A stretch of 64,000 nt of DNA from Escherichia coli (GTDB lineage Bacteria > Pseudomonadota > Gammaproteobacteria > Enterobacterales > Enterobacteriaceae). The translations under genes were made by a program, and so were the position numbers. The stretch lies in assembly GCF_003018255.1 (NCBI RefSeq), contig NZ_CP027440.1; one strand, written 5' to 3'. Below are positions 42,647-45,438 of this stretch, one piece after another. A model generated the notes under the pieces. The model was not told where the DNA came from, did no database searches, and saw nothing but the letters and a program-made list of their open reading frames with translations. How positions within the stretch are numbered: the first letter of the stretch is position 1; each line of letters opens with the position of its first letter.

Positions 42647-44023
42647 TTATCTCCGCGTCATCAGAAGAACAGTGACGGATCGCCCGCCCCGTTTGGTCAG
42701 GCGACCGTTTGCCATAATGCCCATGCTTTCCAGCCAGCGTTCAAACTCCGGTGACGGGCGCAGGTTGAGTAACTGACGCACAGTGGCGGTGTCGTGGAAG
42801 GCCGTAGTCTGGTAGTTGAGCATGATGTCATCACCCAGCGGCATCCCCATGATGTAGTTACAGCCTGCGGTGGCGAGCAGGATCATCAGGTTTTCGTTGA
42901 GGTTCTGGTCAGCGTCAGCGTGGTTGGTGTAGCAGCAGTCACAGCCCATAGAGATGCCGCTCAGCTTGCCCATAAAGTGATCTTCTAAGCCCGCGCGGAT
43001 AATCTGGCGGTCGTTGTAGAGATACTCCGGCCCAATAAAACCGACCACGGTGTTGACGATAAACGGATCGTAATGACGCGCCAGCCCATAGTTACGCGCT
43101 TCCATCGTCACCTGGTCAGCGCCGAAGTTAGCGCCAGCGGACAGCGCCGAACCTTGTCCGGTTTCGAAGTAGAGGCAGTTTTCCCCGGCGATACGGTTAA
43201 ACTCTGCACCCACTGCGCGCGCTTCGTCGAGCATCGCCAGCTCCACGCCAAACTCTTTCAGCCCTTTTTCGCTGCCGCAAATACTCTGGAAAATCAGCCC
43301 GCCCGGTGCGCCGCGACGAATCGCTTCGATCTGGGTGGTGACGTGCGCCAGTACGCAGCCCTGAGTTGGGATGTTGAATTTGTCGATCACGCCATAGATG
43401 GTATCCAACACGCGGCTTAAGTTTTCCACGTCGTCAGTCACCGGGTTAACGCCGATCACCGCATCGCCCACCCCGAAGGAAAGCCCTTCGTAGATTTGCG
43501 CGGCGATACTTTGCACATCGTCACGGGTATCGTTTGGCTGCAAGCGGGCGCTAAAGGTGCCCGGAATACCGATGGTGGTATTGGCCTTTTTGATCACCGG
43601 CATTTTCTTCGCGCCGTAGATCAGGTCCGCGTTAGAGCAAATCTTCGCTACCGCCGCTACCACTTCCGAGGTCAGCCCTTTGCGGGTAAAGGCAATGTCG
43701 TCCACGCTGGTTTCATCGCTCAGCACATACTCACGCAGTTCGCTGATGCTCCAGTTTTTAATCTGGTTGTAGGCCGTTTCGTTAACATCGTCCTGAATCA
43801 GCCGCGTCACGCAGTCATCTTCATAGGCAATCACCGGATTATTGCGGATGTCCGCTACGGTCATTTCCGACAACACCTGCTTTGCCGCCACGCGCTCCTG
43901 TGAGCTTGCCGCAGCAACGCCCGCCAGCACATCCCCCGAACGCAGTTCGTTGGCTTTAGCCAGCACCTCTTTTACATCCTTAAACTGATATACATTGCCG
44001 AACAATGTAGTCTTTAGTTTCAT
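42647..44023 (-). CDS. eutB: Ethanolamine ammonia-lyase large subunit EutB; 458-aa ORF with an aberrant C-terminal 13 residues (probable frameshift)
   Basis: ORF-track; MKLKTTLFGNVYQFKDVKEVLAKANELRSGDVLAGVAAA...; tail reads ...LTKRGGRSVTVLLMTRR where ...LTKRAGDPSLFF is expected. Confidence 0.88.
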   Translation of the reverse strand: MKLKTTLFGNVYQFKDVKEVLAKANELRSGDVLAGVAAASSQERVAAKQVLSEMTVADIRNNPVIAYEDDCVTRLIQDDVNETAYNQIKNWSISELREYVLSDETSVDDIAFTRKGLTSEVVAAVAKICSNADLIYGAKKMPVIKKANTTIGIPGTFSARLQPNDTRDDVQSIAAQIYEGLSFGVGDAVIGVNPVTDDVENLSRVLDTIYGVIDKFNIPTQGCVLAHVTTQIEAIRRGAPGGLIFQSICGSEKGLKEFGVELAMLDEARAVGAEFNRIAGENCLYFETGQGSALSAGANFGADQVTMEARNYGLARHYDPFIVNTVVGFIGPEYLYNDRQIIRAGLEDHFMGKLSGISMGCDCCYTNHADADQNLNENLMILLATAGCNYIMGMPLGDDIMLNYQTTAFHDTATVRQLLNLRPSPEFERWLESMGIMANGRLTKRGGRSVTVLLMTRR

Positions 44024-44034
44024 AAGTCGTTCCC

Positions 44035-45438
44035 TCAGGAAGGAAATGCGAGTGATTTCACCGTCACCGGCACAACCGATCCGCCAAAAAGAGGCGTACC
44101 AATGTCGATATAGTCCCCCGCGCGGACAATCACTTCGTCAATGACTGCCAACGGGAGTTGTTGTAGCTGTGGGCGCAACAACATGCCCAGAGCTTTACCA
44201 AAGTCCTGCCCGGCCACCACCAGCAGGGGATGCGGATTCGGAAAACGCGCGACGAAATCGACCAACGCGTTGATGACCGTCAGTACCGCGGCGTAACGCA
44301 CAGGCAGCGAGGCGGGAAGCGCCAGCACGTACGCGTCAGTTTTAGGATCAAGATCCAGCTGAATCAGCGCCTGTTGCCAGGCACTCACCAGATCCTTTTC
44401 ATCAATTGGGATCGCCACCGGCAAGTTGCGCAGCGGCAGTTGTACGCCCTCCAGCCAGATTGTGCTGCCAGAGAGCGAAAGGGTATGTGCACCCGCGCCA
44501 ATCACCGTGGCGCGCACGGTTTGCGCCGGAAACTGCACGTTCATCTCACGCAGGCGCGGATGGTCATGCAGCGCCGTTGCCAGAAGCGGGCCAATATCGG
44601 CAAAACAGAACGGGTCGGCGGGCTGGTGGCGATAACATTCGCCAACGCCGCCAGAAAGCGTAATGATTTCGGGCGTAACACCTACGGGCAGCAAACCGGT
44701 TTGCATCAATGCCTGCGCGAGCGGCGAAAGCGTTCCGTCAATCACTTCGACAATCAGCTCTGCCATCCGCCGGGTAACCTGCACCAGCTGCGCGCCGGTC
44801 AGCGAACGGGCTTCGGTGCCTGCACCGAAGCACTCATCCACAATCATCTGCCCCGGTTTATGAGCGTAAACCACACGCCCCTGGCTGTCGGTTTCCAGCA
44901 GGCGACCGCCGACATTGAGGCAGGCGGTGCCGCTGATTTTTCCGGCATCGAACAGGGCGTAGTTCGCGGTGCCACCGCCGATATCGATATTCAGGACCCG
45001 ACACAGCCGTTGTTCAGAAAGGGTTTGCGCCCCGGCACCGTGACCGGCGATCACGGATTCGAGATGCGGTCCAGCGCTGGCGACGACAAAATCGCCCAGC
45101 GACTGGGAGAGCGTCATCACCGCCGGGCGAGCGTTGCGGGTTTTCGCGCTTTCACCGGTGATGATGATGGCACCAGAATCAACGCTTTCCGGCGCAATGC
45201 CCGCAGCCTGATATTGCTCGAGGATTAAGGTTTTCAGTTCCGCTTCTTTTAAACCACCCTGTTTATCGACAGGGGTAAAGAACACCGGGCTTTGCCAGCT
45301 AATTTCGCGTTTGATGAATTCGTAGCGCGGCACCTGCGACACCGCCGCACGGTTAACCAGCTCCAGGTGGGAGAAAATCACCTGGGTGGTGGTGGTGCCG
45401 ATATCGATACCGACGCTCAGTAGCTGGCGAGTGTTCAC
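44035..45438 (-). CDS. eutA: Ethanolamine ammonia-lyase reactivase EutA (467 aa)
   Basis: ORF-track; MNTRQLLSVGIDIGTTTTQVIFSHLELVN... Confidence 0.92.
   Translation of the reverse strand: MNTRQLLSVGIDIGTTTTQVIFSHLELVNRAAVSQVPRYEFIKREISWQSPVFFTPVDKQGGLKEAELKTLILEQYQAAGIAPESVDSGAIIITGESAKTRNARPAVMTLSQSLGDFVVASAGPHLESVIAGHGAGAQTLSEQRLCRVLNIDIGGGTANYALFDAGKISGTACLNVGGRLLETDSQGRVVYAHKPGQMIVDECFGAGTEARSLTGAQLVQVTRRMAELIVEVIDGTLSPLAQALMQTGLLPVGVTPEIITLSGGVGECYRHQPADPFCFADIGPLLATALHDHPRLREMNVQFPAQTVRATVIGAGAHTLSLSGSTIWLEGVQLPLRNLPVAIPIDEKDLVSAWQQALIQLDLDPKTDAYVLALPASLPVRYAAVLTVINALVDFVARFPNPHPLLVVAGQDFGKALGMLLRPQLQQLPLAVIDEVIVRAGDYIDIGTPLFGGSVVPVTVKSLAFPS

Follow-up and report, generated by a model that had tools for sequence, protein, structure and literature searches.

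The 64-kb stretch of E. coli DNA analyzed here (the window) contains 17 genes of a eut operon (ethanolamine utilization microcompartment), all on the minus strand, in the order eutSPQTDMNEJGHABCLKR and running from position 54459 down to position 39401. The operon begins with eutS (54124-54459; shell protein, 111 aa; NF012012), followed by eutP (53632-54111; 159 aa; NF012011), eutQ (52956-53657; 233 aa; NF012001), eutT (52156-52959; corrinoid adenosyltransferase, 267 aa; NF011595), eutD (51143-52159; phosphotransacetylase, 338 aa; NF007233), eutM (50811-51104; shell protein, 97 aa; NF012018), eutN (50417-50704; shell vertex protein, 95 aa; NF011992), eutE (49002-50405; acetaldehyde dehydrogenase, 467 aa; NF011927), eutJ (48155-48991; 278 aa; NF011660), eutG (46978-48165; alcohol dehydrogenase, 395 aa, full length; NF011998), and eutH (45435-46661; permease, 408 aa, full length; NF011665). 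Next are the genes for the ethanolamine ammonia-lyase system: eutA (44035-45438), encoding the full-length reactivase of 467 aa (residues 1-467 align with positions 1-467 of NF007991, 1068.8 bits), eutB (42647-44023), encoding the large subunit of 458 aa with a frameshifted tail, and eutC (41753-42640), encoding the small subunit of 295 aa (NF003971). The operon ends with eutL (41084-41743; shell protein, 219 aa; NF011934), eutK (40571-41071; shell protein, 166 aa, full length; NF012010), and eutR (39401-40525), which encodes a regulator of 374 aa whose residues 1-350 cover the full 350-position model.

All 17 Eut proteins scored above the curated NCBIfam cut-offs, and most were matched end to end. 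Fifteen of the genes (all but eutB and eutR) were of wild-type length, ten of them by direct comparison to K-12 and the rest by end-to-end model matches. An earlier note on this DNA had described the 17-gene operon as intact and uninterrupted. The presence of the genes, their order, and the lack of an interruption hold; the wild-type reading frames do not, due to a frameshift in eutB and loss of the stop codon in eutR. That is, the operon is uninterrupted, yet as read from the DNA the wild-type reading frame is absent in some of its genes (eutB and eutR).

In Salmonella, the 17 genes are likewise contiguous and in the order eutSPQTDMNEJGHABCLKR. The 17-gene eut operon of Salmonella enterica was reportedly described by Kofoid et al. 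in 1999, as cited in PMC7617246. The window has the same genes in the same order as S. enterica but differs in two products: EutB ends in 13 residues that replace AGDPSLFF, and EutR is longer by 24 aa.

The eutA-eutB junction

The start codon of eutB (ATG) is at 44021-44023 on the minus strand (CAT on the plus strand), a position supported by the sequence, the open reading frame at 42647-44023, and the PGAP annotation of a near-identical genome. The stop codon of eutA (TGA) is at 44035-44037, also on the minus strand (TCA on the plus strand). They are separated by an 11-nt spacer (44024-44034) that reads cTGAGGGAACGACTTATG on the minus strand and contains the eutB ribosome-binding site. The plus strand from 44018 to 44045 is tttCATaagtcgttcccTCAggaaggaa, and the junction as read in the window is ...tttCATaagtcgttcccTCAggaagg... 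The earlier note had given the coordinates of eutB and eutA and a gap of 11 nt with no integrase or phage genes in it, and the list of open reading frames, the sequence itself, and searches with blastn and tblastn all agree. The note also had eutA beginning at 44035. The position is right, but the operon is on the minus strand and 44035 marks the 3' end of eutA, at its stop codon.

The 8-bp sequence TCAGGAAG, which includes the eutA stop codon, is at 44035-44042 (plus strand) and corresponds to the attB core of CPZ-55 and of islands with IntZ-family integrases. There is a single copy of this core at the eutA-eutB junction, indicating that the site is unoccupied. The same 8-mer occurs six times within the window, which rules out the core as the sole definer of the site; the choice of site must draw on flanking sequence.

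Between 44023 and 44035 there is only the 11-nt spacer, with no sequence of phage or integrase origin. Searches with CPZ-55 and two related islands (blastn) and with IntZ (tblastn) gave zero matches across the 64-kb window. Neither intZ nor yffL-yffS was found in the window, which is an empty site and not a carrier. Positions 44021-44042 are almost certainly the ordinary unoccupied eutA-eutB junction of the E. coli eut operon, and no observation spoke against this interpretation.

Comparison to CPZ-55 in K-12

In the K-12 MG1655 reference (NC_000913.3), a feature annotated as 'cryptic prophage CPZ-55' is at 2558691-2565480, flanked by eutB (b2441) and eutA (b2451). The earlier note had placed CPZ-55 at this junction in K-12, and we checked the K-12 reference for a junction without the prophage; NC_000913.3 has the insertion and the claim stands. 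CPZ-55 is 6.8 kb long, and its intZ and yffL-yffS genes all point in the opposite direction to the eut genes. In K-12, eutB-eutR and the promoter upstream of eutS lie on opposite sides of this 6.8 kb of antisense DNA.

Alignment of the junction to K-12 and other E. coli, which the earlier note had proposed as a way to find the attachment sequence, defined the 8-bp TCAGGAAG. The left end in K-12 (attL) reads ...aagtcgttccc TCAGGAAG aatcgatgat..., and the right end (attR) reads ...ataccgcat TCAGGAAG gaaatgcgag... At the same place the window reads ...aagtcgttccc TCAGGAAG gaaatgcgag... That is, the window is exactly the outer flank of K-12 attL, one copy of the core, and the outer flank of attR. 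Because the insertion has the core on either side, eutA of K-12 is full-length and the ribosome-binding site of eutB is unchanged. The spacer of 11 nt has an identical sequence in K-12 attL and in two more genomes with an occupied site. The eut loci of MG1655 and BW25113 thus have the same flanking eut genes as the window, and attL and attR outer flanks that each match one half of the window junction, but they have 6.8 kb of oppositely oriented prophage between eutB and eutA where the window has none.

There are reported consequences of this arrangement in BW25113, in which eutB was not induced and microcompartments were not observed (PMC7617246). A eut+ strain of BW25113 has been made by scarless removal of the prophage, reconstituting an intact operon (PMC11334477).

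Related elements at the eut site

Two genomes with partial matches to CPZ-55 were examined in detail, BMH-17-0027 and EC-107. Between eutB and eutA, BMH-17-0027 has an island of 13.0 kb and EC-107 has one of 11.6 kb, the latter with cargo that includes gadC, a glutamate racemase gene, and IS elements. Each island has TCAGGAAG on both sides. The arms of both islands are homologous to the arms of CPZ-55, with CCGGATA repeats near attR. The integrases of CPZ-55 and the two islands are ~92% identical to each other, and all three, IntZ included, have the domains Arm-DNA-bind_3, Phage_int_M, and Phage_integrase. This set of domains identifies IntZ as a site-specific tyrosine recombinase.

CPZ-55 is one of a family of integrative elements that have an IntZ-like tyrosine integrase and insert at the eutA-eutB site. 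A novel prophage at the same eut site has also been reported in a uropathogenic E. coli (UPEC) strain (PMC6652756). The 8 bp most plausibly represent the crossover region common to attP and attB in integration by a tyrosine recombinase. The 8-bp repeat has been described previously as a transposon-like target-site duplication (PMC6379469). We disfavor that description, given the integrase domains of IntZ and the three islands with homologous arms and the same core. Based on the identity of the window junction with the flanks of the three occupied sites, we infer that the predicted attB is probably competent for IntZ-mediated integration.

These elements resemble islands with P4-type tyrosine integrases, which likewise have arm-binding, central, and catalytic domains, and in which the target gene shares its 3' end with the core and is restored upon integration. 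Unlike P4-type islands in tRNA genes, these elements are located at the end of a gene that encodes a protein and belongs to an operon. In addition, the exact identity between attP and attB at the CPZ-55-type site is only 8 bp, in contrast to P4-type islands.

Occupancy of the site among E. coli genomes

We found that the junction is uninterrupted in 4,961 of 5,426 complete E. coli genomes (91%), as determined by end-to-end matches to a 120-nt probe centered on the junction. A 2-kb probe gave 4,964 genomes. The junction is interrupted in ~8.5% of genomes, in agreement with the 8% prevalence reported for 638 genomes in a study that also described the 8-bp duplication of TCAGGAAG and found eutA and eutB unchanged (PMC6379469). 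The possibility that most E. coli have an element at this junction was tested across the 5,426 genomes and the opposite was found. Full CPZ-55 is present in 213 of the 5,426 genomes, with 212 of the best matches at ≥99% identity, and K-12 lab derivatives predominate among the carriers listed. Approximately 204 further genomes have only partial matches to CPZ-55, mainly intZ at 80-90% identity.

The empty state is that of the species majority and is presumably ancestral. Most non-K-12 E. coli, including Nissle 1917, 536, and O157:H7, have an empty attB with the same spacer, single core, and gene order as the window. The window differs from this usual empty site by one private synonymous SNP in codon 5 of eutB (44009).

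Strain background

Over all 64 kb, the window is 99.75% identical to E. coli JNE23-011, with 158 substitutions and two single-base indels. Among complete genomes, JNE23-011 and JNE112863 (human, Japan) are the most similar to the window. The next-best complete genomes, among them 536 and F11, are ~98.1% identical over the eut region, and K-12 is 96.4-96.9% identical to the window across this region. The window contains no phylogroup typing markers. By these identities, the window strain belongs to a divergent non-K-12 lineage of E. coli.

The earlier note had argued from the empty site that the DNA came from a non-K-12 background or represented the ancestral state. The non-K-12 background is supported, but by the sequence divergence and not by the empty site. 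An empty site is not proof of a non-K-12 origin; a stock of the K-12 strain W3110 with an uninterrupted eut operon has been reported (PMC11334477).

Frameshift in eutB and stop-loss in eutR

The frameshift in eutB is the sole unexpected detail of an otherwise ordinary locus. At 42687-42690 (plus strand), the window has CCCC where other E. coli have CCC. The extra C, relative to both JNE23-011 and K-12, shifts the frame of eutB eight codons ahead of the native stop. This lengthens the product from 453 aa to 458 aa, and its C-terminus is changed from ...GRLTKRAGDPSLFF to ...GRLTKRGGRSVTVLLMTRR; that is, the conserved tail AGDPSLFF is replaced by 13 unrelated residues. The native stop (42661-42663) is out of frame, and the new stop, TAA at 42647-42649, is 6 nt upstream of the ATG of eutC.

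The rest of the protein is conserved. Residues 1-445 are identical to EutB of K-12 and to the crystallized E. coli EutB (PDB 3ABO). The first 445 codons differ from those of K-12 by 35 synonymous and 0 non-synonymous changes, which points to strong constraint on the normal protein. The sequence KRAGDPSLFF, which ends in the lost tail, does not vary among E. coli, Salmonella, and Citrobacter, and its RAGD motif is retained in EutB of Listeria (2QEZ).

In eutR, the stop codon TGA is changed to GGA and the product is 374 aa instead of 350 aa. The 24-aa extension (39401-39475) runs into the 3' end of hemF, a convergent gene. This change is common to JNE23-011, in which eutR is annotated as encoding 374 aa.

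An exact match to the 71-nt sequence around the insertion in eutB was found in 0 of the 5,386 complete RefSeq E. coli genomes that have this segment. The exact 458-aa EutB is encoded on six public contigs (NCBI and Logan), including a 4.89-Mb NCBI contig, and is found in three independent runs (SRR13450396, ERR3653869, and SRR7947255). Compared to the window, one of these is identical over 5.1 kb, one has a single SNP, and one has a 19-bp insertion that splits eutH. The CCCC in eutB looks like an allele of the lineage and not an assembly error, as judged from these contigs and runs.

It is possible, although we consider it unlikely, that this lineage has impaired or decaying ethanolamine use, with the change in the EutB tail crippling the ammonia-lyase and selection on eut relaxed. 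The invariance of the tail in related genera and the strong constraint on the rest of EutB are consistent with this, as are the stop-loss in eutR and the split eutH in one sister isolate. On the other hand, 445 of the 453 residues of EutB are unchanged, the other eut genes are full length, and the allele persists in several isolates. A literature search for a role of the EutB C-terminus found nothing usable, including any indication that the last eight residues are needed for activity. Somewhat more doubtful still is a specific form of this possibility. In a lineage comprising the window strain and at least three independently sequenced isolates, the frameshift in the EutB tail would be fixed, EutR extended, and eutH disrupted in one isolate; if the tail is needed for assembly or activity of the ammonia-lyase, then ethanolamine catabolism would have been lost by point mutation and not by a prophage.

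It is improbable that the extra C is a sequencing or assembly error and that every gene of the operon is wild type. Two features would be expected of an error: a short homopolymer is altered by a one-base indel, and the complete genomes that lack the allele include the two closest to the window. However, the same 458-aa product was found on the six contigs and in each of the three independent runs examined, and two of those runs differ from the window elsewhere and so are not copies of one assembly. Furthermore, a run that goes from three to four bases is not a typical error-prone homopolymer.

Discussion

Based on their anatomy (the end of eutA and the start of eutB are 11 nt apart on the minus strand) and on established knowledge of the operon, eutA and eutB are likely co-transcribed within the 17-gene operon. 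We propose that the last 8 bp of eutA, TCAGGAAG with the stop codon included, serve as the crossover core of a chromosomal attachment site. Integration of an element would leave a copy of the core at both ends, and the coding sequence of eutA and the ribosome-binding site of eutB would be kept. It would also place 7-13 kb of oppositely oriented DNA between eutB-eutR and the operon promoter. In the window, no element is integrated, and the +1 frameshift in eutB and the stop-loss in eutR are independent of the att site.

From the sequence alone, a site that was never occupied and one that was occupied and then precisely excised look alike. It is very unlikely that the site formerly held a CPZ-55-like element and that its empty state is secondary: the IntZ-family integrases look intact, and the uninterrupted junctions in the W3110 stock (PMC11334477) and in K-12-like genomes (O16:H48 and reduced lab strains) indicate that a clean site remains after loss or removal, but the site is empty in 91% of complete E. 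coli genomes and also in the closest relatives, JNE23-011 and JNE112863, and the window junction has no scar and only a single core. Salmonella has the same contiguous order of the 17 genes. With mostly empty genomes, empty relatives, no scar, and the Salmonella order, an ancestral empty site is the most economical explanation.

Published work already covers the site, the 8-bp repeat, the ~8% occupancy, how ethanolamine use is affected, and the checks proposed in the earlier note, and the empty junction is not a distinguishing feature of this strain. It is what most E. coli have, and its significance goes little beyond bookkeeping. K-12 is the exception, and models of ethanolamine metabolism that are based on K-12 mislead. 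The presence of 17 genes is not the same as 17 wild-type genes, and a check for gene presence would miss the frameshift in eutB, which could affect the ethanolamine phenotype of the strain. If the lineage has in fact lost ethanolamine catabolism by point mutation, then an annotation of 'all 17 genes present' would hide that loss.

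Sequence changes in and around the eut operon

We found that the 3' end of eutB is altered in the window. A +1 C insertion at 42687-42690, eight codons ahead of the eutB stop, shifts the reading frame and converts the conserved AGDPSLFF tail of EutB to GGRSVTVLLMTRR. This allele was found in three independent sequencing runs (SRR13450396, ERR3653869 and SRR7947255); none of the complete RefSeq E. coli genomes has it.

The 3' end of eutR (window 39401-39475, at the 3' end of hemF) is also changed. The stop codon TGA has become GGA, and through its loss EutR is extended from 350 to 374 amino acids and the gene overlaps the convergent hemF by 67 bp. 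The same TGA to GGA change is present in JNE23-011, the closest complete genome. Separately, eutR is frameshifted in strain EC-107.

The intergenic region between eutH and eutG (window 46692-46976) contains 2.8 copies of a 100-bp unit that are 98% identical. Judged by the REP consensus, the unit resembles paired REP/BIME palindromes. The eutH-eutG gap is 316 bp in the window, compared to 216 bp in K-12; that is, the window has one extra unit. In the sister isolate of run SRR13450396, which also bears the eutB frameshift of the window, eutH itself is split by a 19-bp insertion (Logan contig L006, 963-981; approximately window position 45759) into open reading frames of 304 and 98 amino acids.

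Divergence from the closest genome

The majority of the 158 substitutions that distinguish the window from JNE23-011 are grouped in the xapR-yfeH and pdxK-cysT regions (window 9200-14000 and 23100-27400), and just a handful are in the eut region. Such clustering is suggestive of tracts exchanged by recombination between strains that are nearly identical elsewhere. The closest genome also has an annotated 14-codon "hypothetical protein" upstream of mntH (window 828-872, minus strand). This short reading frame overlaps the mntH start; it could encode a leader peptide, or it could be an artefact of the annotation.

Occupancy of the att site

Two non-K-12 strains have islands with different cargo at the att site. 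The EC-107 island (locus L003, 15000-26620) contains gadC, a glutamate racemase gene and a decarboxylase pseudogene, together with IS elements. That of BMH-17-0027 (locus L002, 12000-25000) contains an HNH endonuclease gene and many hypothetical genes. The eutB-eutA junction was uninterrupted in three complete genomes (H13, H16 and H19). One belongs to a mouse-gut strain of serotype O16:H48; the other two are ~4.5 Mb in size, one listed as "Laboratory developed" and one from Homo sapiens. An intact eut operon has also been described in a W3110 stock (PMC11334477). Based on these uninterrupted junctions, occupancy of the att site seems to be variable even within K-12-like strains.
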